A stretch of 64,000 nt of DNA from a virus (taxonomy: Duplodnaviria > Caudoviricetes), in the IMG/VR virus record IMGVR_UViG_3300025372_000001, one strand, 5' to 3'. Position numbers and translations under genes: made by a program. Below the pieces are notes generated by a model, which was given only the letters and a program-made list of their open reading frames with translations, did no database searches and was not told the DNA's origin. This document shows, one piece after another, positions 1-52,025 of this stretch (the stretch's first letter is position 1; the number at the start of each line of letters is the position of its first letter).

Positions 1-76
1 AAAAGGTAATGGTGATGCTGATTTCTCTAAACAGAAAACAGGTTTCGGTAAAAAAGAAGGTGAACGCCTCTTTTAA
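1..76 (+). CDS. 3' end of a gene entering from the previous window (…KGNGDADFSKQKTGFGKKEGERLF*), product unknown
   Basis: Frame +2 is open from position 2 to TAA at 74-76 and is followed by a terminator hairpin. Confidence 0.6.
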   Translation, partial: KGNGDADFSKQKTGFGKKEGERLF

Positions 77-31590: not shown

Positions 31591-31619
31591 ACTATATCAC
31601 GGAATCAGTTTTCAAGCAA
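31591..31619 (-). promoter_or_regulatory. Sigma70-like promoter abutting the gp43 start
   Basis: TTGCTT-17-TATAGT (with TGn) then 6 nt to ATG 31584. Confidence 0.45.
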
Positions 31620-31940
31620 TTTATTTTCTCCACCTTCTTCGAGCCATCCATCTGTATCTTCCACCTTAAATTTAGGACGATCTGCTAACCATTCATCAGG
31701 AGCAGAACGAAAATTTGCTTCAAAGCCATGGAAAATAGAAGCAGCATAAATCATTCCATTAAGCATACCGTGCATATATGAATCGTAATTCCAATTACCA
31801 TTTGATCCTTGGACTGCAATCATACTTTGTAATCGTTCATAATCATATTGCCAATCAATAAGCTTTTTCTTCTTAAGCTCCTGAGCGATAATCTCTTCTT
31901 TTGATAAAGTTTCTCTTATTTCTGTTTGGGGTGTTTCCAT
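31605..31940 (-). CDS. Hypothetical protein
   Basis: 111-aa ORF (QGSNGNWNYDSYMHGMLNGM motif). Confidence 0.6.
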   Translation of the reverse strand: METPQTEIRETLSKEEIIAQELKKKKLIDWQYDYERLQSMIAVQGSNGNWNYDSYMHGMLNGMIYAASIFHGFEANFRSAPDEWLADRPKFKVEDTDGWLEEGGENKLLEN

Positions 31941-31941
31941 T

Positions 31942-32814
31942 TTATTGAAATTGTTCTTTATTCAATTCAGCAAACATCGGAAATGCTTTGCGTTTTTCAC
32001 TTCCATATTCAGTAGAATAAATTGTAACCAATTCATCCAAGTGATCTTTTAGAATATATTTCTTTGCATATTCTCTGCCAAATTCGATTGCCTCTTGATA
32101 ATTGGTTTTATTTTTTAATACTTCTTCAATCATCTGCATCATTTGTTCACCAGTATCAAACAGATATTTCCATCCATCAAAATTATAACATTCTAGATTT
32201 TGTGCAATCACAGGAATACCAAATGCTCCACCTTCTGTCAATTTAATATTGGATTTGGCTCGATTGAATTCATTTTTCTCTAAAGGAGCAAGCATGATTT
32301 GACAATTTAAATTCCTAATAAAATCAGGATATTCAGGAAGAGGAATCCATGGATGAAATTCTACTCCTCTTCCAATAAATTCTCTTAGTCTATAAGGTAA
32401 TGCTCCTCCGAGGAATACCCATTCATATTTCTTCTTATTAAGAAGATCATCAATAATGTAGGAATTGATATGTGAAAAATCGTCTTTTTGACCATTTTTA
32501 TTAACTACATCGAAATGTGTTGCACTTCCTGCATATAGAATTCTTGGTTTCTTGTTCTTACTTTTCTTATAATTGAAAAGAAGTTTGTCCATGTTGAAAC
32601 CAATATCTACTAGATGCTTTGGAGCATAGTTAGGAAGAACGGTAATCTTATGGAAATCTAGTCTTTCTTCATAAAGTTTCTTCATATATGGGGATACAAC
32701 TGTTACTTCATCGCAATTTTTAACTAAAATATTATTAGCATAAAAATTATGATTTTTTTCTACGGTTAAATCATAGACAGGTCTTTTCTTCGAAAGCTTT
32801 TTTATAGTTATCAT
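31942..32814 (-). CDS. Split intein C-fragment (33 aa) fused to the C-half of a GT-B (GT4-like) glycosyltransferase
   Basis: IntC block F/G VYDLTVEKNHNFYANNILVKN|C; extein CDEVTVVSP…RILYAGSATH…IMLAPLEKNEFNRAKSNIKLTEGGAFGIPVIA. Confidence 0.9.
   Translation of the reverse strand: MITIKKLSKKRPVYDLTVEKNHNFYANNILVKNCDEVTVVSPYMKKLYEERLDFHKITVLPNYAPKHLVDIGFNMDKLLFNYKKSKNKKPRILYAGSATHFDVVNKNGQKDDFSHINSYIIDDLLNKKKYEWVFLGGALPYRLREFIGRGVEFHPWIPLPEYPDFIRNLNCQIMLAPLEKNEFNRAKSNIKLTEGGAFGIPVIAQNLECYNFDGWKYLFDTGEQMMQMIEEVLKNKTNYQEAIEFGREYAKKYILKDHLDELVTIYSTEYGSEKRKAFPMFAELNKEQFQ
32716..32814 (-). mobile_element. IntC of a naturally split intein
   Basis: Terminal Asn followed by Cys+1; block F Asp and His present. 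Confidence 0.9.
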
Positions 32815-33067
32815 ATACGTTTAATAAATCAATATTTAATACTTTATTGGGATCAATACAAGTTAGTTGTGAAAGTTCAACTTTGATATTTTGTGCTAAA
32901 CATTTTTCCAAAACTTTTTCACACAATCCTACATGTTTTTTACCATTAAACATATAAGGAGAATATGTTTGAGGAAGTCCAACACTTTTTCGAAAATTGC
33001 GCCACTTTTTATAATGTAGATGTTTTTTATCAAGGAAATACTGAAATACAGTATCAATTAATCGTTG
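32771..33067 (-). pseudogene. Decayed second copy of the C-terminal domain of the adjacent GIY-YIG endonuclease
   Basis: Same frame as the endonuclease, after TAG-GAA-ATT-TAA; LIDTVFQYFL…W…VGLPQTYSPYMFNG…G…LEKC aligns with IIDKAIEYFL…W…MGYPQNY…FRFNG…G…LAEC. Confidence 0.65.
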
Positions 33068-33082
33068 TCTATATTAAATTTC

Positions 33083-33916
33083 CTAGTTTTTTTCCAGTTG
33101 TTCGGCAGTTTTCTCTTTTTTAGATGGCACCTGCTCCCATTTATTTTTATATTTGTCAGGCAAATCTTGTGGCGTAAAGGGAGTAGCATATTCCGCGTAT
33201 ATATTAAAAAGTTCTATGAAACTTCTTCCTCGCATTATATCACATACCATTTCATTGAAAAAAACAGGGATACTTCTTTTTTTGCATTCTGCTAAGAATG
33301 CTTTGTAGAATCCTCTGGTTCCTTCGCCATTAAATCTAAATTTACTTTTTTTATCATAGTTCTGAGGATAACCCATAGTTTTACAATATTTTAGCCAGGG
33401 AGTAGCGTATATATTTCGACGTATCAGAAAATATTCGATGGCTTTATCTATAATCATAACATCAGTTACACCCGTGTATCTACCATTTTTCTCTCCACTA
33501 ACTACTTCTGATCTGATTTTTCTATATTTTTCGTCTTTATAGAAATCTCGATTTCTTGCAAATGGATCGTATACTGCTCCATTTTTTAACATATTGTATC
33601 CTTTTTCACAATTAGTACTATCATATAATGCGATATATTTCTCTTCTATTTCTAATGCCTCATTATGATCGGTGGTGATAGCTAATACTTCGTATGTCAA
33701 ATTCTCTGCCCCATATTTTCGAATAGCATGTTTTAATCTTGTTAAATTTTCGATTTCGTGACTTTTCCCGACACAGTTAGCAACATATATATGCTGTTTA
33801 ATTCGATGTAAAGGTTCTCGCTTTGTATATCCGATATATACTTTATTATTTAAATTAATTTTATATATAGAATATGTGATGGGTTTCTTTTCAGTAGTAA
33901 CAATATCGTCGGACAT
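33083..33916 (-). CDS. Free-standing GIY-YIG homing endonuclease (Seg-like)
   Basis: SIYKI…VYIGYT…R…H, AIRKYG…F/L.YEVL, E..YI…GYN. Confidence 0.9.
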   Translation of the reverse strand: MSDDIVTTEKKPITYSIYKINLNNKVYIGYTKREPLHRIKQHIYVANCVGKSHEIENLTRLKHAIRKYGAENLTYEVLAITTDHNEALEIEEKYIALYDSTNCEKGYNMLKNGAVYDPFARNRDFYKDEKYRKIRSEVVSGEKNGRYTGVTDVMIIDKAIEYFLIRRNIYATPWLKYCKTMGYPQNYDKKSKFRFNGEGTRGFYKAFLAECKKRSIPVFFNEMVCDIMRGRSFIELFNIYAEYATPFTPQDLPDKYKNKWEQVPSKKEKTAEQLEKN

Positions 33917-33942
33917 TAAAACTATTTATACTACGACGATAT
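33903..33942 (-). promoter_or_regulatory. Late promoter TATAAATA and the endonuclease start codon enclosed by a 9-bp inverted repeat
   Basis: atatcgtcg (33903-33911) / cgacgatat (33934-33942); TATAAATA at 33923-33930. Confidence 0.6.
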
Positions 33943-33943
33943 A

Positions 33944-34822
33944 TTATACAATATCTAATATATCATTTGATAATAATTCTTCTGCAATAACCCATCCTCT
34001 ATTCTTAGTAAAGATTGGATGATCCGGTGTACAAATAATAGAATGTCCCGAAACACTATCAGTAATCTCTAAAACATCAGCACTATCATTCGTCATCTCG
34101 CATGCTAATAAAGATTTAAATTCTATAACATTGGTATCTAAATCTTTGGACAAAACTTTGATATTTTTGCCTTCATCAAAATATTCTTTAAGTTCTTTAA
34201 GATCAATGTCCATATAAATCCCATCAACTATGGTATTAATGATGGATGATTCATCTACGCATAAATGAACTATTTCTTTTACAATCTTTTCGATTTTATT
34301 ATCTAGGAAACCTTCGCGACAAGCATTATACATTGGCAAGGTGTCAATAAAAATACTATCGTCCACTTCCCACACGATTCTAAATCCCTTACCTGTTTGT
34401 CGCTTAAATTCATTAGAGACTTCTCGTAAAAATTTAACGAATTCTAATTGAGGTTCAGTACATTGTCTCTGAACACGAACGGCATCAATTGCTCCATAGA
34501 AATGAGGAACCATTACCATTTGATATAGGGTCATTACTACTGCTTTATTGTATGCAAGAAGGTCGTCGGCAGGCCAAATCATCCGCCAAAATCCACAACC
34601 AGATTGATCGGCACAATAATGAATGACTCTAGGAAGACCTTCACCAGGAACAGGAATTTTAAAAGGTTCAGGTTTAGGTAGAGGAGTCCAAGGTTTTTTA
34701 GAAATAGGATTATGTCCTATGTGCTTCTTAAAAGGTGTTAAAGGGTGATTATGAGAAGGAGGTTGAGTAGGAACTATACCGGGAACTTTAATATTTGTCT
34801 GGGGTGTAACGAAAGAAGCCAT
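33944..34822 (-). CDS. N-half of a GT-B glycosyltransferase (187 aa) fused to the split intein N-fragment (105 aa)
   Basis: Extein DQSGCGFWRMIWP…VQRQ…WEVDD; IntN CVDESSII…CTPDHPIFTKNRGWVIAEELLSNDIL*. Confidence 0.9.
   Translation of the reverse strand: MASFVTPQTNIKVPGIVPTQPPSHNHPLTPFKKHIGHNPISKKPWTPLPKPEPFKIPVPGEGLPRVIHYCADQSGCGFWRMIWPADDLLAYNKAVVMTLYQMVMVPHFYGAIDAVRVQRQCTEPQLEFVKFLREVSNEFKRQTGKGFRIVWEVDDSIFIDTLPMYNACREGFLDNKIEKIVKEIVHLCVDESSIINTIVDGIYMDIDLKELKEYFDEGKNIKVLSKDLDTNVIEFKSLLACEMTNDSADVLEITDSVSGHSIICTPDHPIFTKNRGWVIAEELLSNDILDIV
33947..34261 (-). mobile_element. IntN of a naturally split intein
   Basis: Cys1 at 34259-34261; block B TxxH with the RGW.AeeL..D tail, then a stop codon. 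Confidence 0.9.
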
Positions 34823-34849
34823 CTTAAACGTATTTAAGATGGCTTCTTT
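34812..34849 (-). promoter_or_regulatory. Perfect 17-bp hairpin sequestering the GT-N start codon, with a late promoter in the upstream arm and loop
   Basis: aaagaagccatcttaaa-cgta-tttaagatggcttcttt; ATG at 34822 in the stem; TAAATA at 34831-34836. Confidence 0.8.
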
Positions 34850-34870
34850 TTATAATCAATGCTAATTAAA

Positions 34871-35164
34871 TTAACTATTAAAGAATTGAATTAATTGATC
34901 TTTAGTTTTACCGCCAACTTGTCGTCCTACTTCTACCCCATTTTTATAATGGATAATAGTTGGAACGGCACGAATACCTTCTTGAGAAGCTAGATTACTC
35001 GCTTCATCAGTGTCCACTTTAATGATATTAATTTCTTCTGCTGCTTTCTCGATATTGGGGGCCATCATTTTACAAGGTGTGCAAAAACTTGCACTATATA
35101 CAATAATGAGGTTTTCGTCATTTGCGCGTTTAATTATAGCATCTTTTTCTGTTGTGTATTCCAT
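34871..35164 (-). CDS. trxA: Thioredoxin
   Basis: SASFCTPCKMMAP, IKVDTDE, GIRAVPTII…G. Confidence 0.9.
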   Translation of the reverse strand: MEYTTEKDAIIKRANDENLIIVYSASFCTPCKMMAPNIEKAAEEINIIKVDTDEASNLASQEGIRAVPTIIHYKNGVEVGRQVGGKTKDQLIQFFNS

Positions 35165-35973
35165 ACGTGGTTATTTAATCTTTCGTCTTTTCGTGTTAAA
35201 GTAATATGTGGATAATCGTTTATTCCTTTTATGAGAAGTTCCTGAACTGCATCTTTATTGAAATGTAAATCCCAATATTCCTTTTTTCTTTTACTTATTT
35301 TTCCTCCAAAAAAATATTGTAAGTCTTCTATGAATCCTTTACTGGCAGACACTATACTTATACGGTGTCCTGTTTTTGCTACCCAACCATCGCCATCTGT
35401 TACTCCACGTAAAAAACCTAATCTAAAGTTTTCAGTTGCGGTGGAAAAGGTTTCTATATTTATTCGAAGATCATAAGTCTTATTTGTAAATATCAGAAAT
35501 TGGTGAATGACGTTTTCAAATGCAGGCATCGTTGCAGTATATGCAATCTTATCAGTTTTTCCTAAAGTCGGGGGTTTTATACGGAAATCGGAAATATCTA
35601 TATCTTCTAATAAAGTATCAAAAAACTTAAATAAGCAATCCTTATCTTTTATTGCTAAAGTTATATCTATCCTACTAATCGTATTTTTAATCTTAAAATT
35701 GGTGTATAGGCAACCATCTGCGGCAAAAAATCCTAAACACCATCCCAAATCAAAATCGGATATATTTATTTTAGCTTTATGTTTTATTCTGCCACCTTTT
35801 TCAAAAAATGGACTTTTGATACCACTTTTCTTTCTTAACTCTGAAAGAGTTCGAGATTTTATCTCCAATAAATCACATAACTCTTTTCTATTTTTAGAAG
35901 AGTTATAAATTTTTAATAATTCGATTCGTTTTAAATTTATCTCATATTGTTGAGCGTTAGTATATTTTCGCAT
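35134..35973 (-). CDS. Free-standing double-motif LAGLIDADG homing endonuclease with an N-terminal HTH
   Basis: LGWCLGFFAADGCL and LGFLRGVTDGDGWV. Confidence 0.88.
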   Translation of the reverse strand: MRKYTNAQQYEINLKRIELLKIYNSSKNRKELCDLLEIKSRTLSELRKKSGIKSPFFEKGGRIKHKAKINISDFDLGWCLGFFAADGCLYTNFKIKNTISRIDITLAIKDKDCLFKFFDTLLEDIDISDFRIKPPTLGKTDKIAYTATMPAFENVIHQFLIFTNKTYDLRINIETFSTATENFRLGFLRGVTDGDGWVAKTGHRISIVSASKGFIEDLQYFFGGKISKRKKEYWDLHFNKDAVQELLIKGINDYPHITLTRKDERLNNHVWNTQQKKML

Positions 35974-40020: not shown

Positions 40021-40749
40021 TCAGATATAACTATCAATTCCTCTGTGCCAAATTCCGTCGTCTCTTCTTTCAATTATTCCTTGCTCAATATGAACCAATT
40101 CTCCTACTCGTTCCCCATTAACCCTCAATAAACAAGTCTTTAAACAATCTAATGTTTCTACTTCTATTCCATGATAATTAACCAGAAACATTAGGAATCT
40201 TTCATAGAAAGAATTTCCGCCCATTCTAATATAATATGGCAATAGATCGTATCCATCAGCAATCAAATCCATATTCGTTGAATTAGTAATATAAAATCTA
40301 TCACATAGTCCGTGCCAATCATCATGGTTCAATGTCCATATTTTTTGGAAATCAAATTCTTCAATATTATCAGGTAAAGCAGTATCTTCTAAGAGAAGTA
40401 AATCGGGTCGAACACGAACAACAATATCATATTTAAAATTATGGGCTTCTTCGTATCTTTGTTTTATTTTATTACATTGTTGTAAGCAATACAATTGTCG
40501 AAACATTCCTTGAGTAGCATGTTCATTGACTAAATCAAGATTAAGGTCTTTTCTCGTTTCGGAATGAAATTTTATAACATGATCATTTACTCCTAAAAAG
40601 GTGTTCATTTTATCAATATGGGGGTCATCTTGCCAGAAAAAGATAAAAATATCATAATCCTTAAATTTAGAGAGTATATTCTTCTCTAATAGATGAAACG
40701 TTTTATCGAGGGAACGAAATTCACCGGAAAAACAAATAGCAGTTCTCAT
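40021..40749 (-). CDS. Putative glycosyltransferase (GT-A-like)
   Basis: AICFSGEFRS, YDIFIFFW, YDIVVRVRPDL, CDRFYI. Confidence 0.65.
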   Translation of the reverse strand: MRTAICFSGEFRSLDKTFHLLEKNILSKFKDYDIFIFFWQDDPHIDKMNTFLGVNDHVIKFHSETRKDLNLDLVNEHATQGMFRQLYCLQQCNKIKQRYEEAHNFKYDIVVRVRPDLLLLEDTALPDNIEEFDFQKIWTLNHDDWHGLCDRFYITNSTNMDLIADGYDLLPYYIRMGGNSFYERFLMFLVNYHGIEVETLDCLKTCLLRVNGERVGELVHIEQGIIERRDDGIWHRGIDSYI

Positions 40750-41717
40750 TATAAACTATCAAGGAATACTGATTTAAATTTCTTCATCACTTCATTAGGA
40801 GTAAATGCTTTATAGGCATTCCAATCTCTATAAGTCCATTCCTTATTAAATGAGGATAATATCTGATAAACTTCTTCTTTATTAGAATAATAAATTCCTT
40901 TATCTTTCAGGGTAAAGATATGATTTCTTTCAGGACTATTAGCATAAGTGATAACTGGTTTATTGCATAAAGAAAATTCTGCACATGCTGCTCCGAAACT
41001 TTCTCCTACATGTCTAGCATGAATCATTGCATCACAAGTATTAATGAACTTCCTTTTAACGGTTAAATCCGCAAAAGGATGGGTATGAATGATTCGAGGA
41101 TGATTGAAGAATTGAGGAGTTTGAGCAAAAAGAAAGTAAACATCATCTCGTTCAGATAAGATTTTAACTATTGCTTCATTTACGAAATGAATATCCCAGC
41201 CATAATGTCCGCCCATTCTACCAAACACAATTGCATCACGAGGAATACCAATTTGTTCTCTAAAGTCTTCTTGAGTGTCTGGTAAATGAACACAATAAGG
41301 AACAAAAGGATGCTCTCCTTTAGAGCAATGAATGCTTGACCATTCAGAAACATATGCATATACTTTTCCATGAGGTTCGTTGTTCATTCCTACTACATGA
41401 ACAAACATGGGAACATTATTGACCCATCTTCCTTCATTGATTTTACCGTTTTTTTGAAGATAACAAGCGGCAGCATTATGTTGAGTAATTGCATCCTCAA
41501 GAGCAGGCATATTTTGTGTTCCCGGTAATGCAACTAATTCAATATTATGTTGTTTGAATTTCTCAATTACTAAAGGACTGTTATAGGAATTAACTTCATC
41601 ATAAATCATCACAGATTTATTTCCAAGAATGGATTGATTGAAGTGACAATAATCGAAGTAGGAAACTCCTGTTCCTTGGAGGTCCATATGAGGTTGATAA
41701 AATGCTAAAGTGCTCAC
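40749..41717 (-). CDS. GT-B (GT4-like) glycosyltransferase
   Basis: QGTGVSYFDY, FGRMGG, FINTCDAMIHARHVGESFGAACAEFSLCNKPVIT. Confidence 0.8.
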   Translation of the reverse strand: MSTLAFYQPHMDLQGTGVSYFDYCHFNQSILGNKSVMIYDEVNSYNSPLVIEKFKQHNIELVALPGTQNMPALEDAITQHNAAACYLQKNGKINEGRWVNNVPMFVHVVGMNNEPHGKVYAYVSEWSSIHCSKGEHPFVPYCVHLPDTQEDFREQIGIPRDAIVFGRMGGHYGWDIHFVNEAIVKILSERDDVYFLFAQTPQFFNHPRIIHTHPFADLTVKRKFINTCDAMIHARHVGESFGAACAEFSLCNKPVITYANSPERNHIFTLKDKGIYYSNKEEVYQILSSFNKEWTYRDWNAYKAFTPNEVMKKFKSVFLDSL

Positions 41718-42532
41718 AATAAACTATATTCTTTTTGTTCTCTAATCTGTTCTTTGATACTTTTAGTAACCAACTTAGTAGTATCGTAAATAGAATCAAG
41801 CGTTCGGTAAATGCTCTTTGGCGCAAAAGATGGGATAATATCCACGGTCAAGCCATATAATTCATTGATTTTAGTAATCAAATCAAATTTGGAACAAACA
41901 TCGGGAGAATGAATATGTCGAACTCCTTCCCATATCATATTGTTTTCTATGATATGATGAATAAATTTGCTTAATTCTAAGCAAGTTACGCCATTCCATA
42001 AATGATTATCATAGCCATTTATAGTTTGACCTTTACTAGCTTTTACCCATTCTAATAGGGATTTTTTATGTCTAAGTTCTTCTCCGATAATAGACGTGCG
42101 AATGACACATGCTTTATCTGGTTCTCCTAAGCTTTTACTTTTACCATAAACACTTGTTTCATCGTGTTCATCTTTTTCATCATAACCGCCAGTTCTACCC
42201 GAAAAGACACAATCAGTGGTAATATGAATTAACTTAGCTCCGAGAGCACTACAAAGATATTGCAATTCATGTGGCAGAACAGAATTAATCAATATGCTAT
42301 CTAGAGGATTTGAGTCTTTTCGTTGAGGTACAATACCGATACAATTAATGACAATATCATTTTTAGACAAAACTAGATGTCTATTTAAACATGTAATACT
42401 TTCCCCATTTAGCGACAGGTTATTACGTGTGAAGTGTAATATCCTATAATCTTTAACGGGATTGCGTTTTAGATATGTATACACATATCTTCCTAACATC
42501 CCATTTGCTCCTAATACTAAAATATTATTCAT
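41714..42532 (-). CDS. rmlD: NDP-4-keto-6-deoxyhexose reductase (RmlD-like)
   Basis: GANGMLG, INCIG, HITTDCVFSG, YGKSK, IRTS. Confidence 0.88.
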   Translation of the reverse strand: MNNILVLGANGMLGRYVYTYLKRNPVKDYRILHFTRNNLSLNGESITCLNRHLVLSKNDIVINCIGIVPQRKDSNPLDSILINSVLPHELQYLCSALGAKLIHITTDCVFSGRTGGYDEKDEHDETSVYGKSKSLGEPDKACVIRTSIIGEELRHKKSLLEWVKASKGQTINGYDNHLWNGVTCLELSKFIHHIIENNMIWEGVRHIHSPDVCSKFDLITKINELYGLTVDIIPSFAPKSIYRTLDSIYDTTKLVTKSIKEQIREQKEYSLL

Positions 42533-43476
42533 GGTTTATAAAAATTATGCTCTTCTAAAAATTCATATAATTCTTTTTCATCGATTAAACAATTCCTAGA
42601 CGAATATTCATTATCAGTAAAAGAAAATGCATTGTTTTGTATGTTTTTATGAATATTGAAAACATCATATTGATCATTCCAAGTCGTTCTCGGCATCTCT
42701 TCTGGAGCAATCATCAATTCATGAATCTTTTCATTAGGCCGTGGAACGGTAATATCATACTTTAATTTAAAAATATCATGATATATATTAAACAAATCTT
42801 TAACTTTGAAGCTCATTGCAGCAGGAACAACATTGACATTATTAAATTGCAATGATTTATAAATCAAATCCATTGCTTCTTCAATAGTTAAAAGAAACCT
42901 TGTCATATCCTCCCCAAACAAGGACAAAGTTTTATCATTCTTAATATATTTCCAAATTAAAGGAATAATTGAACCGGTTGAATTAACTACATTGCCATAT
43001 ACAACAGAAACTAATCGAGTAGAAACGTCTTCATTATTAGAAATAAAACTTTCAGAAGCAGTAAATTTCATTGAACCGTAAATGGTACTTGCTGCTCTAC
43101 TTTTATCAGAAGAAATAAAACAAGCAGCTTTCAACTTGTTATCAATTGCTGCCTTCTTTGAATTGAATGCGCCCTGAACAATGATTTGATTGGCTTCTTC
43201 GTAATTAGTTTCACATGCCTCGATTTGCTTCATACTTGCTGCAAAGATACCAATATCCATTCCTCTCATTGATCTATTCAAATGATCAAAATTACGAATA
43301 TCCCCGACAATAAATTTAACCTTGGGAAACTCTTTCTTTAAGAAATAATGTTTGGCTTCATCTCTGGAGAAAACGGTAATTTCATTATTTTGATATAAAT
43401 CCTTGATTAGATTTTTACCAAGATAACCTGCTCCTCCCGTGATAAAAACACGGGAATTTATGGGTCGATAACTCAT
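42529..43476 (-). CDS. UDP-GlcNAc 4,6-dehydratase (PseB/FnlA/CapD family)
   Basis: TGGAGYLG, FSRDEAK, GDIR, AASMKQI, SSDKS, YGSMK, YGNVVNSTGSIIP, MTRF, RPNEKIHE. Confidence 0.88.
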   Translation of the reverse strand: MSYRPINSRVFITGGAGYLGKNLIKDLYQNNEITVFSRDEAKHYFLKKEFPKVKFIVGDIRNFDHLNRSMRGMDIGIFAASMKQIEACETNYEEANQIIVQGAFNSKKAAIDNKLKAACFISSDKSRAASTIYGSMKFTASESFISNNEDVSTRLVSVVYGNVVNSTGSIIPLIWKYIKNDKTLSLFGEDMTRFLLTIEEAMDLIYKSLQFNNVNVVPAAMSFKVKDLFNIYHDIFKLKYDITVPRPNEKIHELMIAPEEMPRTTWNDQYDVFNIHKNIQNNAFSFTDNEYSSRNCLIDEKELYEFLEEHNFYKP

Positions 43477-44048
43477 GCTAGGGTCAATATATCATCAATA
43501 CTCTGTCCTTGCAAGATGATACTTTTATTATTAAAGTAATAATCAAAGTCTTTTCTTTCATAAACTAAAATATTCTTATTTGGTTGAACTTTAACAACAC
43601 CTAATACATCATTACTTGGAAAGATATAAGAAAAAGCATTAAAATTCGGATTGCCTCTGATTTCAATAAATGAAATATATGCGGTTCCACTAGCAGTTTG
43701 TTTAGTATTATCTAAATTCTCTGGTCCAACATCATGCATGAAAATAATTCCATCAGGATTTAATGCTTTTACTGCATTCTCAAAATCTTTATTAACTTGC
43801 GAGTATTCGTGGTATGCATCAATATAAATCACATCAAATGTTTGAGTATTCTGTTTAAAGAAATCATCGGTTGTTCCCAAGAAATCAGGTCTTGTCCGAG
43901 GATTAGTATCTATTCCTTTTTTATGTAAACATTTAATTCTATCAAATGTTTCTCTTGCTTCTCCTAATCCTAATTCAAGATAAGAAGAATATTGCTTATG
44001 TTCTATAACTCGGTTGATTAATTCAAATTTATCTTTCATATTGTTCAA
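43473..44048 (-). CDS. Class I SAM-dependent methyltransferase (Methyltransf_24-like, probably a glycan O-methyltransferase)
   Basis: YLELGLG, FDVIYIDAYHEY..V..D, LNPDGIIFMHD. Confidence 0.8.
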   Translation of the reverse strand: MNNMKDKFELINRVIEHKQYSSYLELGLGEARETFDRIKCLHKKGIDTNPRTRPDFLGTTDDFFKQNTQTFDVIYIDAYHEYSQVNKDFENAVKALNPDGIIFMHDVGPENLDNTKQTASGTAYISFIEIRGNPNFNAFSYIFPSNDVLGVVKVQPNKNILVYERKDFDYYFNNKSIILQGQSIDDILTLA

Positions 44049-44952
44049 TTTTATCCATTACGTATCTGGCTCTGGCAATAGTTGTTCCATTTTCTTTCAA
44101 CCATTTCTGTTGAGCCTCGTATAATTCTATATATTCCTTCGTTGGTTTATTATCAATTACCAATCTATTCATTATCTCATATAATTCTTGTTCAGTATGA
44201 TATGAAATAGTTGGAAGATTTCGAGGTTCCATTAAAGGATGTTTATCTTGGTAATTTTTAAACAATAAAACGGCTCCATTTGCCATTATTTCATAATGAC
44301 GAAGGCATTCCCATCCTCCTTTTACACAAGTCAAACCAAACCAACTTTCTTGAAGGTCTTTATAGTATTCTTCTTCTGCATTGAATTTTTGAGTAGAATT
44401 ATTCCGAAAACAAGCATCAGCAGGAGAAGTTTGTTGAAACAACTGTTTCTTTATTTCTAAATTTATATTTGATATTTTATGAGAAGGAATACCGAAACCA
44501 ATCGGCCAAACAGTATCAAAATCTTCCACTAATTCACGTTTAAAACATTTGGAAAGGAATTGTGTTCCAATAACTTCTTGCCCTTTATACGTTATTTTCC
44601 TTTCTGCATTACCATAAAGATCGTTTCCATCTGTATAGAATTGATTGGGATGATTTACGTTCCATCTGTCTCCGTAAATGAATCCTGAACCGTGAATAAC
44701 TACATCAAAATCAATTACTCTTAGATTATTTCTATCATATGATGCATCTTTGATGGGCGAAGTACAGAAAGTCATACCTTTTCCATGCAGTTTATTCATG
44801 GGAGATTCAGTAAAATCACCATAAAGTATTTTCTTTTTCGGAAATTCAACGAAGTCTTCTCCTAATAGTTCTCTTAATCCATGAACCAAGGTTAACTCAA
44901 GGTAATCGCCTTGAGCATTAGAATTTCTAGTACATAAAAATAAAACTTTCAT
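44029..44952 (-). CDS. Putative glycosyltransferase (GT-B-like)
   Basis: FKREL, PIGFGIP, KGGWECLRHYEIMANGAV. Confidence 0.65.
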   Translation of the reverse strand: MKVLFLCTRNSNAQGDYLELTLVHGLRELLGEDFVEFPKKKILYGDFTESPMNKLHGKGMTFCTSPIKDASYDRNNLRVIDFDVVIHGSGFIYGDRWNVNHPNQFYTDGNDLYGNAERKITYKGQEVIGTQFLSKCFKRELVEDFDTVWPIGFGIPSHKISNINLEIKKQLFQQTSPADACFRNNSTQKFNAEEEYYKDLQESWFGLTCVKGGWECLRHYEIMANGAVLLFKNYQDKHPLMEPRNLPTISYHTEQELYEIMNRLVIDNKPTKEYIELYEAQQKWLKENGTTIARARYVMDKIEQYER

Positions 44953-45713
44953 TATTGTTGAACCAATCTAATATCTGATAAATTATGAATAGGTCGATTT
45001 TGAATCATGCTACTGGCAGAAGGTCCACTATTAGGACGATTATATTCAATATTAAGTTGACTATCATTCCAATTTTTCCATGATTTTTTAATATCTTCTC
45101 GTTCTTTTCCTAAAAATAAATCCCACTGTTCGTATTTCTCTTCGGGAAGATTTTTAATGATAATGTTACTGTATCGCATATCGTATTTTGCATCCCAATG
45201 AGGTTGAGAATAACGACATTTACTGTTTATATCTTGTAAGGGACTTTTTGCTTCCCCATAATTATAATTTGACTCTTGTGATTCATATAATGCTAAATTA
45301 TGTTGTTTTAAACGGAAAACAAAATCTCTATCTTCCCATCCTCCTCCAATAAATCGTTCATCCCACCAACCAATCGTTCTAATTAATTGCTTGGAGAACA
45401 TCATGTACCCAACATTATACATAAAAGAAGCAGCATAACCTTCTTTCATATGATTAATCATTTTCAGTGCTTCTTCTAAAGTGATTATCGATCTATCATT
45501 GACAAAAATCATCCATTCATATTTGGAAGTAGCAATGGCATGATTCATCATTAAGCTATAAGACTTATAGGCATGGGGATAACGTTCCGAGCGTAAATTC
45601 CAATCAATCTCATAATTTCTTTCTAATTCTCCCAGAATATGTTTTTGTTCCTTCTCAATAGAAGATGAATGTCCTACATGTAAATTTATACTAATTTCTC
45701 CAATATCAATCAT
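44952..45713 (-). CDS. GT2/GT7-C-like glycosyltransferase
   Basis: MNHAIATS…IFVNDR, IGWWDERFIGGGWEDRDFVFR. Confidence 0.75.
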   Translation of the reverse strand: MIDIGEISINLHVGHSSSIEKEQKHILGELERNYEIDWNLRSERYPHAYKSYSLMMNHAIATSKYEWMIFVNDRSIITLEEALKMINHMKEGYAASFMYNVGYMMFSKQLIRTIGWWDERFIGGGWEDRDFVFRLKQHNLALYESQESNYNYGEAKSPLQDINSKCRYSQPHWDAKYDMRYSNIIIKNLPEEKYEQWDLFLGKEREDIKKSWKNWNDSQLNIEYNRPNSGPSASSMIQNRPIHNLSDIRLVQQ

Positions 45714-46627
45714 AATTTTTTAAAGTCGGTATATGCTAATTCTATTCCTTGTTCCAATTTAACCATTGGTTTCCATCCTAATGATTTAATAATATCCACA
45801 TTCATCAATTTAGAATAAGTTCCGTCTGGTTTAGTTGTATCCCAAATAATCTTTCCTTTATATCCAACTACTTTCTTAATAGTGTTTGCTAATTGGTTAA
45901 TAGATACATTTATTCCTGAACCAATATTGACTATATGAAATTCTGGTCTAGATTCAAGAACTTTATAACAACCTTTGGCAAGATCATCTGCCCAAAGAAA
46001 CTCTCTCAACGGTTTACCTGATCCCCACAAGGTAACAGTTGGTTTCTTTTCAATTTTTGCTTGATGAAATTTCTTAATTAAACCAGGAATAACATGAGAA
46101 TTTTGTTCATGATAATTATCACCAATTCCGTATAAGTTACAAGGCATCACTGATCTATAATTTAATCCATATTGTTGTGAATAATATTCACAAAGTTTAA
46201 TTCCGGCTATCTTGGCAATTGCATAAGGTTCATTAGTAGGTTCTAGTGAACTAGTTAATAATTGCTCTTCTTTAATGGGATTAGGAGTAACTTTGGGATA
46301 GATACAAGAGCTTCCTAAGTAGAGCAGGTCTTTGACTTGAGTTTTATATGCGGAATGAATGCAATTGGCAGCAATCATTAAGTTTTCATAAATGAAATCG
46401 GCAGGAAAGGTGGAATTGGCGAGTATGCCTCCTACTTTTCCTGCCGCAATGATTACCGAATCAATTTCTTCTGATTGAAAGAAATCTTCTACATCTTCTT
46501 GAGAGGTTAGATCAAGTTCTGAATGGGTTTTATAGACAGGTTCATATCTGGTTAAATCTAAGTTTTTTAGTAGGGAAGTTCCTACTAAACCTTTATGTCC
46601 TGCTATGAAAATCCTCTTACGCATCAA
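45710..46627 (-). CDS. fcl: GDP-L-fucose synthase
   Basis: AGHKGLVG, AAGKVGGILAN, LGSSCIYP, LEPTNEPYAIAKIAG, MPCNLYG, SHVIPGL, WGSGKPLREFL. Confidence 0.95.
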   Translation of the reverse strand: MMRKRIFIAGHKGLVGTSLLKNLDLTRYEPVYKTHSELDLTSQEDVEDFFQSEEIDSVIIAAGKVGGILANSTFPADFIYENLMIAANCIHSAYKTQVKDLLYLGSSCIYPKVTPNPIKEEQLLTSSLEPTNEPYAIAKIAGIKLCEYYSQQYGLNYRSVMPCNLYGIGDNYHEQNSHVIPGLIKKFHQAKIEKKPTVTLWGSGKPLREFLWADDLAKGCYKVLESRPEFHIVNIGSGINVSINQLANTIKKVVGYKGKIIWDTTKPDGTYSKLMNVDIIKSLGWKPMVKLEQGIELAYTDFKKL

Positions 46628-47589
46628 ATAATTATATAGTCACATGCTTTGAGACTATCAAGGTTCTTCCCGCCTGAATAACTTACACTAGATTTCAGAC
46701 TATCTTCAATTAATTTAATTTGCTCTTTTAAAGTTAATCCATTGGTATCAGTATGAATGATGGTTCCTTCGACATTAGAGGAATGACCTTTTGCTTTGGC
46801 GGTAGAATTACCGTAATAACCTTCACGAATGGCAGGAGAGTCGATACATTGAGAGAATAAGAATCCACTACAGACATAATTTGCTCCGAATCGAATAGCT
46901 TTGGCAATATCACCGATTGCAGGTTCTCTTGTTGCACATTTAGTAATACCTCCATCAGAGATGATTTTAATCTTATTTTTAGCTTGGGCCATTCGATAAA
47001 GATCACCAATAGAGGTCGAACCAAAACCGGTGAATTGACGGGTTCTACAACTTTGACTAATTCCAATATTAACCTTTGCAGCATCTACACCTAAATCTTC
47101 TAACCATCTGATCCAATCAGGATGATCCCCATTACCAACAATTAAATAAGCAGCAGGAAGATGTTCTTTAATATATTTGATCATTCTTTCTACTTGATCT
47201 TGCCAAGATAATGCAACATCAATAGTGATATAAAGATTATTTTTTTTATAATGGTCTTTAATCCATTGAACTAATTCATAATCAGAATCTTTAACTCCGA
47301 TAGAGACGGATGCAATATTCCAATTATCTTTTTCGACTCTGGTAAGGAAATCTTTAATTTGAGAATAGGGGCAAGTACGATGAAAGATATAGAACCACCC
47401 TGCTTTATCAAAGATTTCGCAAATATCTTCATTGATAATGGCTTTCATATTTGCAGGGAAAACCGGTGAATTGATTTTGATATGGCCTATAAGGGTAGAA
47501 ATATCACATTCTTTTCGTGAATTTATAATACATCTACCATGTTTAAGTAGAATATTTTCATAGGTTAGGTGTTGGGGTATGTTATTCAT
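46624..47589 (-). CDS. guaC: GMP reductase (GuaC, IMPDH/GMPR family)
   Basis: SPVFPANM, FYIFHR, ITIDVA, IVGN, KVNIGISQSCRTR..TGFG, IISDGGI, DIAKAI, YYGNST, SSVSYSG. Confidence 0.8.
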   Translation of the reverse strand: MNNIPQHLTYENILLKHGRCIINSRKECDISTLIGHIKINSPVFPANMKAIINEDICEIFDKAGWFYIFHRTCPYSQIKDFLTRVEKDNWNIASVSIGVKDSDYELVQWIKDHYKKNNLYITIDVALSWQDQVERMIKYIKEHLPAAYLIVGNGDHPDWIRWLEDLGVDAAKVNIGISQSCRTRQFTGFGSTSIGDLYRMAQAKNKIKIISDGGITKCATREPAIGDIAKAIRFGANYVCSGFLFSQCIDSPAIREGYYGNSTAKAKGHSSNVEGTIIHTDTNGLTLKEQIKLIEDSLKSSVSYSGGKNLDSLKACDYIII

Positions 47590-47590
47590 A

Positions 47591-48370
47591 TTAGTTAATC
47601 CAAGATTTTGCTACATTCCAATTACTTCCGGTAAAGTGCCGGAATTTTACTTTACTTCTATCATCAAACTTATTGATATAGAAAGTAGTATCAGATTCAC
47701 CGGGCCAAATAGTTAGGTTATATTCTACGGGAAGAATTTGCACATGTCTATTAAAATCTTCTACCGAATAAAATGTAGTAATCTTCTTGTCGGAATGAAC
47801 TCCATTATTAGGTAATTCTGTGAAGGGAATCCATGAATGACGCTTAATACCGAAAAGATCGTAGAAGACCGCCTGCTCACGGAATTCATTTAAAAATATT
47901 GATGGTGGTCTATTAGGAAATCCTTCATGAATAGTATATTCTCTTGACATTCGCTGAAAGCGATCTTCGTCAAGGATATTATCTACTAACTGTCGAGTCC
48001 AATCATTGATTCTCAATCCAAAAATACCGTGGCAGTACGAGTTTCCAGAGTCTATACAAATTGTCATAGACTTATCCTCGGCAGGTTCATAATCATCTAC
48101 CCAAGATTTTACCACAACATCCGCATCTTGTTGAATAATTATATCATTCTCTTTTAATGTTTCGCTTTTAATTAGTGATTGAATAATGCTCCATTTACAC
48201 CAAGTTAAGTTGCCGCGAAAAGGAACAGGATTATGTTCTTTCCGAATCTCTACATATTTAAATCCATGCAGTTCACAGTAATCTTTATTTCTAGGAGAAA
48301 TAATCTCGTCAAAAATCTTCTGGCGATAATCATTTTCTGGATAGGCACTGATAACAAATAGGTATTTCAT
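47591..48370 (-). CDS. GT34-like (GMA12/MNN10-type) glycosyltransferase
   Basis: NKDYCELHGFKY, WCKWSII, QDADVV, EQAVF. Confidence 0.7.
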   Translation of the reverse strand: MKYLFVISAYPENDYRQKIFDEIISPRNKDYCELHGFKYVEIRKEHNPVPFRGNLTWCKWSIIQSLIKSETLKENDIIIQQDADVVVKSWVDDYEPAEDKSMTICIDSGNSYCHGIFGLRINDWTRQLVDNILDEDRFQRMSREYTIHEGFPNRPPSIFLNEFREQAVFYDLFGIKRHSWIPFTELPNNGVHSDKKITTFYSVEDFNRHVQILPVEYNLTIWPGESDTTFYINKFDDRSKVKFRHFTGSNWNVAKSWIN

Positions 48371-48537
48371 TCAAATATATAATTCTTTAGATTGTTGAGA
48401 GCTTCTTTATATTCAGCTAATAATTTCTGGAAATGTGCATCATCTATTTCTTCCCAATACGAATACTCGTCCATGGCATAATGAAAGCCTTCAAAACTTA
48501 TAATTTCTTTAATATAATCTTTAGCGTTTTTGTCCAT
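48367..48537 (-). CDS. Small hypothetical protein (56 aa, missed by the ORF track)
   Basis: MDKNAKDYIKEIISFEGFHYAMDEYSYWEE…; ATGA overlap with the next gene. Confidence 0.55.
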   Translation of the reverse strand: MDKNAKDYIKEIISFEGFHYAMDEYSYWEEIDDAHFQKLLAEYKEALNNLKNYIFE

Positions 48538-48567
48538 CTTATTTTCTCAAATAAATTAATAGGTATT

Positions 48568-48786
48568 TCATCGATCTAGTAGATATGCTTGATAATATAT
48601 ATCAGCCAAATTCATTATCAATTCTTGAGCACGACTTTCATCCCAATGTTCGGATTTAGACATATTATATGCTATTTTTAAATATTCTCTAATATCAAAT
48701 ATTTTTTCTAATTTCATATTTCTATATTCAATTTGAAACTTTTCATGCTCATACATGGGAGCAGGTACAATTATATCTTCTATCAT
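48568..48786 (-). CDS. Small hypothetical protein
   Basis: 72-aa ORF. Confidence 0.5.
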   Translation of the reverse strand: MIEDIIVPAPMYEHEKFQIEYRNMKLEKIFDIREYLKIAYNMSKSEHWDESRAQELIMNLADIYYQAYLLDR

Positions 48787-49646
48787 AATCTCTTCAAAAT
48801 CTGATTACAAGTGCCCTCAAGCGTGAACCAATCATCGTATAATTCTTTCGCTTTTCTCAGCATACCATTATATCTTTCTTTATCATTATAAATTTCCATT
48901 AAAATATCATGCATGTGGTAAATTTGATCGGGTTTAATGATAACACAAAAATCTTGCCACTTCAATTGTTCTTCCCAAGGAAGCCAATGTTTATCTGAAA
49001 CATAAACAGGAACAGAATTTAATTGCATTGCCTCATATAATCTAAAACTGGCGGGCGCGTTCCCTCTTATCGCTAAAGTGAAAGCAGATTGTGAAGTTAT
49101 TGTAATAAATTCATCTAATTTTTCTGATGGTAATGTTTGTTGCCAATTTTCCATAGGAGGAAAATAACAATCTTTATATTTTCGTAATACTTCATAAGTG
49201 TATTGTCTTAAAGGGTGTGTCATCCTACCCACAAACGAACAAAGGTATTTTTTGTTGTCGGTGATTATTAGCTTTTCTTGGGGTATTTTAGACACTACTA
49301 ATGGAATAGGCACTTTATATGTTCCCGATCCTCTGTCGCTTGCAGCAGCAAATACAGTGGTATTACGGGGCAATGTATGTAATACCCCATCATCAAACTG
49401 AACAATTGTAAAATATTCTTCATTTTGTGGAAGAGCATTTAAATATTCCTGAACAGGGATAGGATTCTGTTGAACATATATAGGGGTCCACCAAACGGCT
49501 AGATATTTTTTATTAGTTTTAACTTTATCTTTGTTAGCATGAAATGCATTAAAGAAACTTTCCTCCAAATAAGTTTCAGGATTCGCATATGGTGGCATGG
49601 GAGGATACTCGGATTTTATCCTAAGTTTTGAAAAATCGTAAATCAT
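48783..49646 (-). CDS. Exostosin-like GT47 glycosyltransferase
   Basis: LCSFVG, SAFTLAIRGNAPASFRLYEAMQLNSVPVYVSD.HWLPWE..LKWQDFCV. Confidence 0.85.
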   Translation of the reverse strand: MIYDFSKLRIKSEYPPMPPYANPETYLEESFFNAFHANKDKVKTNKKYLAVWWTPIYVQQNPIPVQEYLNALPQNEEYFTIVQFDDGVLHTLPRNTTVFAAASDRGSGTYKVPIPLVVSKIPQEKLIITDNKKYLCSFVGRMTHPLRQYTYEVLRKYKDCYFPPMENWQQTLPSEKLDEFITITSQSAFTLAIRGNAPASFRLYEAMQLNSVPVYVSDKHWLPWEEQLKWQDFCVIIKPDQIYHMHDILMEIYNDKERYNGMLRKAKELYDDWFTLEGTCNQILKRL

Positions 49647-49647
49647 A

Positions 49648-50358
49648 TTATTTTAATTTCTCCTTAAAAAGTTCTAACAATTGCTCTTTATGCTCATAAT
49701 GACAATAATTACCATGAAGAAATAATAACTTCTCTTTAAAGGGAATTTCAAAGGTGTTATCTGTTCCATCCCATACTTTACCTGCAATAGACCCATACGT
49801 AAATGCAACATCGAACGGAAGAACATTAAACTTAATGTCTTTTAATTCAAAAAATCTATGTTTATTCACTAAAAGCCAGGTGAATACTTCCTGTTCATTA
49901 GCAAATGTTGGTTGCCCTGGAACAAGAGTTGTGCCATGCATAATAACATTAACTGCCTTCATTAAATTCCTAGTATTTTCCGTGGATTTGATACATATTA
50001 TTCCAGTACAATAATTGGGAAAATGAGGAAAAGGAGAATCAGATTGACATAGAACATCATAATCCTTCATTGCTTTTTGAACATAATCAAAGAAGTTCTG
50101 AACAATGATAATATCAGTATCCACAAAAAGATAATATTCTCCATCAGGAGTAGTCATTAACTCATTGTATAACAGTTCTGATTTTATTTGCATGAAGTTC
50201 TTCCATTCGGAAGAATTAAATTTTGGTTTCTCTCCTGCTAATTGTGGAGCTTCTACTGCTTTTAATTCCAAACGATCATCTTTAGGAAAAGATGGAAGAA
50301 AATATTCTTCATACATTTTTTTATGGCTTGGACTATATAATGTTACGATTTTCATCAA
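49648..50358 (-). CDS. Nucleotide-diphospho-sugar transferase (GT77-like)
   Basis: LFVDTDII, DVLCQSD, CTGIICIKSTENT, NEQ, LHGNY. Confidence 0.75.
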   Translation of the reverse strand: MMKIVTLYSPSHKKMYEEYFLPSFPKDDRLELKAVEAPQLAGEKPKFNSSEWKNFMQIKSELLYNELMTTPDGEYYLFVDTDIIIVQNFFDYVQKAMKDYDVLCQSDSPFPHFPNYCTGIICIKSTENTRNLMKAVNVIMHGTTLVPGQPTFANEQEVFTWLLVNKHRFFELKDIKFNVLPFDVAFTYGSIAGKVWDGTDNTFEIPFKEKLLFLHGNYCHYEHKEQLLELFKEKLK

Positions 50359-51225
50359 CTACTCAATATAACGTATTTGCTTTTCCGTATCAAGTCGCAT
50401 CGCTTCAAAAAAGTTTTCAGTAAATTCTTTTTCCCCTTCTGGAACAACTGTAAACTTTCCCCAAGGGCGTCTTTTGCACAGGTTATGTTGCAGGTGAAAA
50501 AACATCAAATTAACCACTAATTGATTAAAAGGACTGTTCTTGATTTTATTTTCATTATATCTCTTCTCTACAGAATCTTTATGAGAAACATTGTCATGAA
50601 ATATATGACAAATAATAGGCTTTTGGGGATCATTTAATAATTTCCCGCCATATAACATAATTAATCCAGCATACAATACATCAAATAAAGGTTGTCCAAT
50701 TAACATCTCGGGGTGCAAGTGGGCATATTTGTTCCACCATTCTTTTTTATAGCAAAAAAAATCGAAGCCAGCCGGTTCACTTCGGATAACATTAATTCCT
50801 TTCTGTTTAATTTCATTAAAACTATCAACTGGTTCAATGTCTAACCGAGATGCAGCAAAAGCAGGAACATCGTTTTGTTGCATATAATCAATAAAATTCT
50901 TAGTTAAGATACAATCACTATTAACATATGCAATATGAGTGATGGTCTTATCTTCTTGAGCTTTTTTATAAAGAATATCCAATATATCTTTAATAGATGG
51001 AATATCTTTTTCTGAATCATCTAGATAAAATCTAGAATTGATGTATAAATCAAATAAGGCAGGAATACCAAATCGAGAAATTTTCCCTTCGTTTTCAAAA
51101 GGAAATTGTAAGGCAACTAATTCAATTAAATCTGGATATTGTTGTTGTAAATGTATCCAAGATTCCCTTGCAATATCTTGTCGAATATTATTTCCGTATA
51201 TGTTCGTGCCTATAAGGATTTTCAT
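50359..51225 (-). CDS. Putative GT-A glycosyltransferase
   Basis: YVNSDCIL DxD-like motif, SRLD, GFDFF, IGQPLFD, CHIFH. Confidence 0.6.
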   Translation of the reverse strand: MKILIGTNIYGNNIRQDIARESWIHLQQQYPDLIELVALQFPFENEGKISRFGIPALFDLYINSRFYLDDSEKDIPSIKDILDILYKKAQEDKTITHIAYVNSDCILTKNFIDYMQQNDVPAFAASRLDIEPVDSFNEIKQKGINVIRSEPAGFDFFCYKKEWWNKYAHLHPEMLIGQPLFDVLYAGLIMLYGGKLLNDPQKPIICHIFHDNVSHKDSVEKRYNENKIKNSPFNQLVVNLMFFHLQHNLCKRRPWGKFTVVPEGEKEFTENFFEAMRLDTEKQIRYIE

Positions 51226-52025
51226 AAATTTCCGTAACCTCCTTTATTACATGCTAAACTTCTCAAATTACTAATTAATTCTTCCTGGGATGGTGCAAGA
51301 ATATTAGGCACATGAACATAATGCTCTGCCATGAATATCTTATAATCATTTTGTAAGGTATCCCATCTGTTTCCATTAGGATCAATCCTACTAATTGCAT
51401 CTGGATTATTCTTTATAAGAGAATCACTTAAACTTAAATCCCCAAAATTCCAAAACCCAAAACCGTATCGAGAAGTAGAGAACCTATATGCCCATTCCGC
51501 ATCAAAAAGACTCTTCATTTGCTCATTATATAATCCAATATCTTCTAATACTCTTAATGACCTATAAGTAAACTCATTGGTCATATTCTTATAGAAATAA
51601 ATGATTAAATCATCATTATATCGAATTTTATGTCTAGGTGTTCTTGCTCCAACTGGTCCACTTTCCCATCCATAACTGGCAAATGAAAAATATTCTATTC
51701 CCGTTATTTTTGCAGCATTAATATATTTCTCAAAAATAGTTTCATCTAGACAAACCATGTCATCTTCGCATAAAAAAATATGCACATTACCTAATTGTTG
51801 GGCAATCTTTAATCCATCATTTCTAGCAGATGCAATATTCTTAACCTTCTCATGTTGAATCCAAATCAATTTATTATCTGGTAGATTATAAGATTTGGTG
51901 TAAGGATTGCCTCCATTTACTACAATAACTTTATCTACTTTATGAAACGGCATACTATTCCATAAGGTATCGAAATAGTTTTCCGAATTAAAAGTAGTAA
52001 TAATTAAGGTAATTTTGTCATTCAT
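51222..52025 (-). CDS. GT2 glycosyltransferase
   Basis: LIITTFN, VIVVNGG, NIASARNDGL, FLCEDD, IGLYNE. Confidence 0.85.
   Translation of the reverse strand: MNDKITLIITTFNSENYFDTLWNSMPFHKVDKVIVVNGGNPYTKSYNLPDNKLIWIQHEKVKNIASARNDGLKIAQQLGNVHIFLCEDDMVCLDETIFEKYINAAKITGIEYFSFASYGWESGPVGARTPRHKIRYNDDLIIYFYKNMTNEFTYRSLRVLEDIGLYNEQMKSLFDAEWAYRFSTSRYGFGFWNFGDLSLSDSLIKNNPDAISRIDPNGNRWDTLQNDYKIFMAEHYVHVPNILAPSQEELISNLRSLACNKGGYGNL

Follow-up and report, generated by a model that had tools for sequence, protein, structure and literature searches.

In a 64,000-nt window of viral DNA (the whole stretch analysed here, to which all coordinates refer) from IMG/VR record IMGVR_UViG_3300025372_000001, an 82-kb viral contig estimated to be 31% complete and derived from freshwater metagenomes, a predicted glycosyltransferase (GT) gene is divided between two open reading frames (ORFs) that each carry one half of a split intein and are separated by a GIY-YIG homing-endonuclease ORF, the whole locus lying on the minus strand. 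The genome that harbours it is that of an uncultured freshwater T4-like phage, whose DNA polymerase is only ~30% identical to cyanophage gp43. The N-half ORF (34822-33944; 292 aa) encodes 187 residues of the enzyme (N-extein; 34262..34822), made up of a Pro-rich N-terminal stretch and the greater part of the N-terminal Rossmann domain and ending in ...KEIVHL, followed by a 105-aa N-terminal split-intein half (IntN; 33947..34261) with Cys1 encoded at 34261-34259, a TPDH block B motif, an NRGW tail and a net charge of -14, and then by a TAA stop (33946-33944). A 27-nt spacer (33917..33943) leads to the endonuclease ORF (33083..33916; 277 aa), which is ended by a TAG at 33085-33083, and a detached endonuclease tail follows in the same frame (32771..33082). 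The C-half ORF (32814-31942; 290 aa) opens with a 33-aa C-terminal split-intein half (IntC; 32716..32814), MITIKKLSKKRPVYDLTVEKNHNFYANNILVKN, which has a net charge of +5 and ends in Lys-Asn (...NILVKN), and continues from Cys+1 with the 257-aa C-extein (CDEVTVVS...; 31942..32715), which supplies the final two N-domain strands and all of the C-terminal Rossmann domain. Since the N-half and IntC starts are 2008 nt apart (3n+1), the two halves are in different frames. The exteins add up to 187 + 257 = 444 aa, exactly the length of their closest uninterrupted homologue, P0002, to which the N-extein and the C-extein are 81% and 88% identical, respectively. An earlier note on this DNA had described the two ORFs at these coordinates, the 187 + 105 aa make-up of the N-half with Cys1 at 34261, TPDH, RGW tail and TAA, the 33-aa IntC ending in Asn and followed by Cys and the C-terminal domain of a GT, the difference in frame and a predicted joined product of 444 aa, and all of these details proved right.

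The two extein segments are consecutive parts of one protein family, since the phage glycosyltransferase profile phrog_7162 matches the N-half over positions 6-96 and runs on in the C-half over positions 90-299. More than 90 uninterrupted proteins of about 400-470 aa, retrieved from a large protein collection with either half as query, cover both halves, and the alignment runs through the junction in uninterrupted homologues of 441-464 aa, an outcome of the kind that the earlier note had proposed to check. At this point P0002 (444 aa) reads ...KQIVHL-T-DEMTVVSPYMKKLY..., and the homologues read ...IVHL-x-DEMTVVS..., where x is C, T, V, I or M and the Asp-Glu that follows is nearly invariant (79 homologues). 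With Cys naturally present at +1 in many of these uninterrupted proteins, the product of splicing would resemble a native enzyme. The P0002 gene is moreover syntenic with that of the window, the shared order being gp46-like (583 aa), thioredoxin (97 aa), GT and DNA polymerase (862 aa). An AlphaFold (AF2) model of P0002 (predicted local distance difference test score, pLDDT, 91.8) has a GT-B fold with two Rossmann domains, and its best Foldseek matches are the GT4 enzymes BshA, MshA, WaaG and PimA (E 1e-8 to 1e-10, TM-score about 0.55); the Pfam families Glycos_transf_1 and Glyco_trans_1_4 scored below their cut-offs (20.6 versus 25 and 19.6 versus 27 bits). On this structural likeness, the enzyme is predicted to be a GT-B, GT4-like glycosyltransferase. 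In the P0002 model the insertion site, 187|188, falls inside the N-terminal domain, between helix 176-187 and strand 190-193, and two strands of that domain are left in the C-half. Neither half is thus a self-contained unit, so ligation, or at least tight reassembly, would be needed. Among cultured phages, blastn found nothing and a protein search found only distant glycosyltransferases, 26-28% identical, in phi92-like and Streptomyces phages.

Both intein halves are recognised by Hint-domain profiles, a check that the earlier note had proposed: PF14890 (Intein_splicing) matches the N-half over profile positions 11-92 and the C-half over positions 125-155, and TIGR01443 (intein_Cterm) matches IntC at 35.3 bits (cut-off 15.6). 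Residue Cys188 of the N-half, directly after ...IVHL, is position 1 of the intein and is invariant in eight alleles, as are the block B Thr/His and the RGW. Block B TPDH fits the TxxH pattern, with T98 and H101 being invariant in the alignment of split alleles. At the C-terminal junction, ...VYDLTVEKNHNFYANNILVKN|C, the terminal Asn, Cys+1 and the block F Asp/His are kept in eight IntC alleles. These catalytic residues are unchanged between split alleles whose IntN identity ranges from 41 to 84%, with an IntN of 104-105 aa (net charge -9 to -14) and an IntC of 33-35 aa (+1 to +5). Approximate omega values between the window and the split locus L002 are 0.067 for IntN, 0.04 for the part of IntC not overlapped by the endonuclease frame, 0.07-0.10 for the exteins, 0.17 for the endonuclease and 0.43 for its detached tail. 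Given that the values for IntN and IntC match those for the exteins, both intein halves appear to be under purifying selection as strong as that acting on the enzyme. When modelled as a complex, IntN and IntC (residues 176-292 of the N-half and 1-48 of the C-half) scored 0.80, compared to 0.01 for the best of three controls; in a benchmark, 51 of 78 solved complexes but only 2 of 108 mismatched pairs attained a score of 0.80. As split-intein complexes have already been solved, this model indicates likeness and is not proof of association.

The ORF between the halves, which the earlier note had called a GIY-YIG gene, matches PF01541 at 28.1 bits (cut-off 22.6) and phrog_314 with E = 4e-17, and is 67% identical to the 386-aa enzyme of L002 and 46% to the 373-aa enzyme of L001, another split locus. 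The family assignment therefore stands, but the gene is not intact: two in-frame stops, the TAG and, three codons on, a TAA (33076-33074), leave 277 aa, as against 366-386 aa in its relatives. Beyond these stops the same frame continues for ~100 codons, homologous to the L002 enzyme's C-terminal module, ends at 32771 and overlaps the start of the IntC ORF by 44 nt. On the contig of P0105, whose N-half is 98% identical to that of the window, the endonuclease ORF is intact (382 aa) and has the same 44-nt overlap. The part lost duplicates a DNA-binding module (self-match, 23% identity); since the endonuclease of an nrdA-locus relative (251 aa) manages with a single such module, we do not call the truncated protein inactive. 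Recoding of the stop codons was considered and rejected because the two differ (TAG and TAA), and the idea of read-through from IntN to the endonuclease was dismissed because the spacer holds a second in-frame TAA.

The spacer carries a T4-type late-promoter motif, TATAAATA, at 33930-33923. The ATG of the endonuclease lies between the arms (33942-33934 and 33911-33903) of a 9-bp inverted repeat (free energy about -10.8 kcal/mol), and L001 has an equivalent hairpin of different, compensatory stem sequence (-12.3 kcal/mol). By analogy with mobE of phage Aeh1, this hairpin would probably block translation of the endonuclease from read-through transcripts, leaving only late transcripts to be translated. 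A scan for sigma-70 promoters and terminators gave sites no more numerous than in shuffled sequences.

An intein is present at the same site in at least eight further N-half clusters and in seven further C-half clusters (90% identity), and homologues also occur in Tara Oceans data. The order N-half, endonuclease, C-half is found in all loci for which DNA or gene tables are available (L001, L002, L011 and the P0105 contig). An IMG/VR scan with the IntN alignment yielded one more split locus of the GT type (L011), the other loci being related inteins in ribonucleotide reductase (RNR) and helicase genes. In a C-extein tree of 119 rows, including four RNR rows (P0098 and P0102-P0104) that passed the length filter and act as outgroup only, each of eight split alleles stands beside an unsplit one, and the label "split" requires eight changes. 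Support for these pairings by the Shimodaira-Hasegawa-like approximate likelihood ratio test (SH-aLRT) is 97-100 in five cases and 89 in one; P0003 and P0022 are without a well-supported sister. One cluster at 90% identity holds a split member together with an unsplit member of 446 aa, and intein similarity broadly tracks the extein clades. Taken together, these comparisons indicate that the element is a long-standing resident which persists as a presence/absence polymorphism by way of homing among close relatives, loss, or both. No joint of the kind expected from a coexisting allele without the intein was present in contigs of four runs covering the locus; since rare variants are lost from contigs, this does not count as evidence that such an allele is absent.

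The intein is not of a new type, and its sequence places it as a relative of the NrdA/NrdJ-1 split inteins. Its nearest relatives are split inteins of the RNR alpha subunit inserted at the thiyl-radical site (...SNL|C.E[IV]...), with up to 78% identity in IntC and about 51% in IntN, and the closest of these in sequence are metagenomic nrdA-type split inteins (P0096-P0104 and P0159). At one nrdA locus, L007, the inteins are about 50-78% identical to those of GT, and the GIY-YIG endonuclease is a homologue too (31-37% identity, E about 1e-22 to 1e-27); with inteins and endonucleases both homologous, the whole cassette is common to nrdA and GT. A quick tree of IntN places the GT inteins in a single group (SH-aLRT 84) adjoining an nrdA intein, which would be compatible with a single switch of host gene in either direction. 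Because the cassette is homologous to those of nrdA and IntN resembles that of NrdJ-1, the cassette has probably switched host gene. The protein junctions look alike, HL|CDE in GT and NL|C.E in nrdA, and similarity between the DNA target sites is suggestive only. A fuller scenario, in which an RNR cassette jumped into a sugar-transfer enzyme at an nrdA-like junction and is still homing among freshwater and marine T4-like phages, is offered tentatively, as a possibility that falls somewhat short of being probable.

Several points weigh against reading this locus as a trans-splicing fractured gene. The two PF14890 half-matches, at 24.6 and 26.2 bits, are below the whole-domain gathering score of 35.8, and TIGR01445 (intein_Nterm), which aligned over 1-83 of its 83 positions from Cys188, scored 22.4 bits versus a cut-off of 24.5. 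No obvious Shine-Dalgarno sequence precedes the IntC start. The omega values are approximate, with synonymous sites between the window and L002 near saturation (pS 0.42-0.73) and nonsynonymous change low; the C-extein tree came from a quick search with SH-aLRT support only; and solved split inteins already known to the model may have contributed to the complex score. Finally, the penultimate residue of IntC is Lys (LVKN) rather than the usual His in seven of the eight GT-type sequences, His being present in P0022 and in the nrdA relatives. A penultimate His is common among inteins but not universal, and other residues are tolerated in some active ones, such as DnaE. This substitution, together with the charge complementarity and confidently predicted interface that would suffice for association, is what could be expected if the intein halves were splicing-dead and served only as a dimerisation module, yielding a non-covalent two-chain enzyme or cleavage without ligation. 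Association alone, however, would require none of Cys1, Cys+1, Asn33, the block B Thr/His or the block F Asp/His, all of which are kept in eight of eight alleles, and the NrdJ-1 intein, which is in experimental use, is of the same family as the close nrdA relatives. We therefore regard loss of splicing as improbable.

If, instead, invasion by the endonuclease and intein had destroyed the GT gene, both of its pieces would be decaying alongside the endonuclease, whose two in-frame stops would fit such a course, and the enzyme may be dispensable. Against this, the extein ORFs are full length, free of stops, 81-88% identical to the intact homologue and constrained at the omega of 0.07-0.10 given above, and the split arrangement has been maintained in many diverged phages, which makes a dead gene very unlikely. 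Given that the window is from a metagenome-assembled record of low estimated completeness, a chimera in which an intein-bearing nrdA fragment was joined to a GT gene has also to be weighed. This can hardly be the case, as the same architecture is present on independent JGI, ENA, Logan and IMG/VR contigs (L001, L002, L011 and the P0105 contig) and intein and extein share one reading frame at each junction. The locus is also matched exactly, both endonuclease stops included and with zero differences, by contigs from two runs; as these runs may be source samples, their contigs do not count as independent support.

Hint halves, syntenic homologues, conserved residues, selection, predicted binding, and the spacer, hairpin, promoter motif and overlap all agree with the fractured-gene architecture proposed in the earlier note. 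It is thus very probable that this is a genuine fractured gene, in which a GT-B enzyme of ~444 aa is made as N-extein-IntN plus IntC-C-extein and joined by trans-splicing. The acidic IntN and the basic IntC would associate and together build a class-1 Hint fold; an acyl shift at Cys1, transesterification to Cys+1 and cyclisation of the terminal Asn would then ligate the exteins, producing an enzyme with a native-like ...IVHL-CDEVTVVS... junction. The IntN/GIY-YIG endonuclease/IntC cassette would be a selfish homing element, kin to those of phage nrdA genes, that probably made one move into GT. Its hairpin and late-promoter motif probably ensure that the endonuclease is translated from late transcripts only, and both halves of the enzyme would be co-transcribed. 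The nonsense codons that remove the second DNA-binding module would fit early decay in a homing cycle, with the intein still under selection. Anatomy, homology, conservation and selection are what the sequences show in this account, whereas splicing itself, the time at which the genes are expressed and the way in which the host switch went are inferred.

Other features of the window and of related contigs deserve mention. Between the C-half and the DNA polymerase gene lies a 111-aa ORF (31605-31940, minus strand) that has no counterpart in the P0002 and P0105 contigs, where the gap is ~38 nt. Upstream, a free-standing LAGLIDADG endonuclease gene (35134-35973, minus strand) extends into the beginning of the thioredoxin gene; L002 has it too, but the syntenic contigs of P0002 and P0105 lack it. 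A perfect 15-bp inverted repeat, AGAAGCCATCTTAAA / TTTAAGATGGCTTCT (34805-34850, minus strand), lies across the N-half start codon, with TTTCGTT after it, and might act either as terminator of the thioredoxin gene or as a hairpin that hides this start codon. A group I intron was considered and rejected, as was any other RNA family, since only two sub-threshold chance matches were obtained, at the hairpin near the GT start. Farther away, a ~12-kb cluster of sugar-nucleotide and glycosyltransferase genes (40021-52025, minus strand), flanked by gp46-like and gp47-like recombination genes, includes DUF7796, Glycos_transf_1, RmlD-like, Polysacc_synt_2, epimerase, IMPDH/GMP-reductase-like, GT47, Nucleotid_trans and GT2 genes. 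A search for further inteins across the 82-kb record of the window itself found this one only. Elsewhere, the DNA polymerase B gene of L002 (5001-9012) is also fractured: a 667-aa ORF ends with a Hint N-fragment (residues 567-665) and is followed by a 344-aa ORF without clear family and then by a 320-aa ORF that opens with a Hint C-fragment. On the P0105 contig, the DNA polymerase gene downstream of the split GT is called at 552 aa, versus 862 aa in the window, and may likewise be fractured. At L015 (3329-4351), a related split-type IntN interrupts an SNF2/DEAD-like helicase directly after ...VDEVHK.

These results would widen the host range of natural split inteins and fractured genes past DNA and nucleotide metabolism to a glycosyltransferase, and homology of the whole cassette between the unrelated hosts nrdA and GT points to host switching. 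Close relatives of the locus provide a series of states (empty site, intact endonuclease, nonsense-mutated endonuclease) in which the homing cycle of phage populations could be studied, and an NrdJ-1 relative with a penultimate Lys and a Cys+1/CDE context could be a useful addition to the split inteins available for protein ligation. The GT gene adjoins that of DNA polymerase within a replication gene block. Should the enzyme act on DNA, it would conform to the rule by which inteins of phages settle in enzymes that handle nucleic acids; should it act on something else, this would be the first exception on record among fractured genes.

The arrangement itself is a known one, apparently not yet reported for a glycosyltransferase. 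Full-text searches of the literature on inteins and glycosyltransferases turned up no glycosyltransferase host, nor did a check of an intein-host survey from 2015 and an actinobacteriophage survey from 2025, in keeping with the view of the earlier note that such a host would be unusual and possibly undescribed. That view has to be narrowed to the published record: an unrelated viral Glycos_transf_1 protein of 690 aa (L018:3050-5119) has a contiguous intein after ...FGIPTVEAMS (Intein_splicing, 42.5 bits, above the cut-off), and glycosyltransferase intein hosts are hence not unique in nature.

Fractured loci were described by Dassa, London, Stoddard, Schueler-Furman and Pietrokovski in 2009 (NrdA-1..7, NrdJ-1/2, gp41-1..9 and IMPDH; PMC2677866), with eight host types, all of them enzymes of DNA synthesis, repair or packaging, a spacer of 27-51 nt, hairpins where the endonuclease begins (15 of 16 loci), ten of them with a late-promoter motif, and an overlap of 6-69 bp between endonuclease and IntC. 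The GT locus has the same one-strand order of N-extein-IntN, spacer, free-standing GIY-YIG endonuclease and IntC-C-extein, a hairpin with the late-promoter motif at the endonuclease start, an overlap (44 bp) within the published span, IntN and IntC lengths (105 and 33 aa) inside the published ranges, and a T4-like phage as host. Its acidic IntN and basic IntC repeat the polarity described for NrdA-2, NrdJ-1 and IMPDH-1 (PMC2677866). It differs from these loci in its glycosyltransferase host, in the penultimate Lys, and in an endonuclease whose C-terminal module is duplicated (366-386 aa) and, in the window genome, truncated by nonsense codons. The nearest solved structure is that of NrdJ-1 (8UBS, 9OMB), with which the GT intein shares the length of IntN and the ...CTPDHP.YTKNRG... 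block B region, and IntN matches 8UBS with E = 4e-17 over residues 12-102; in contrast, the IntC match is weak (E = 0.3), and the host protein and insertion site are other ones. Lastly, in Aeh1, according to work of Gibb and Edgell as cited in PMC2677866, nrdA is broken by the mobE endonuclease gene, and a hairpin with a late promoter controls mobE translation. In both cases, as far as that citation goes, a gene of a T4-like phage is cut in two by a free-standing homing endonuclease under apparent hairpin/late-promoter control; but whereas the Aeh1 NrdA halves are described there as intein-free and associating non-covalently, at the GT locus Hint halves flank the endonuclease.

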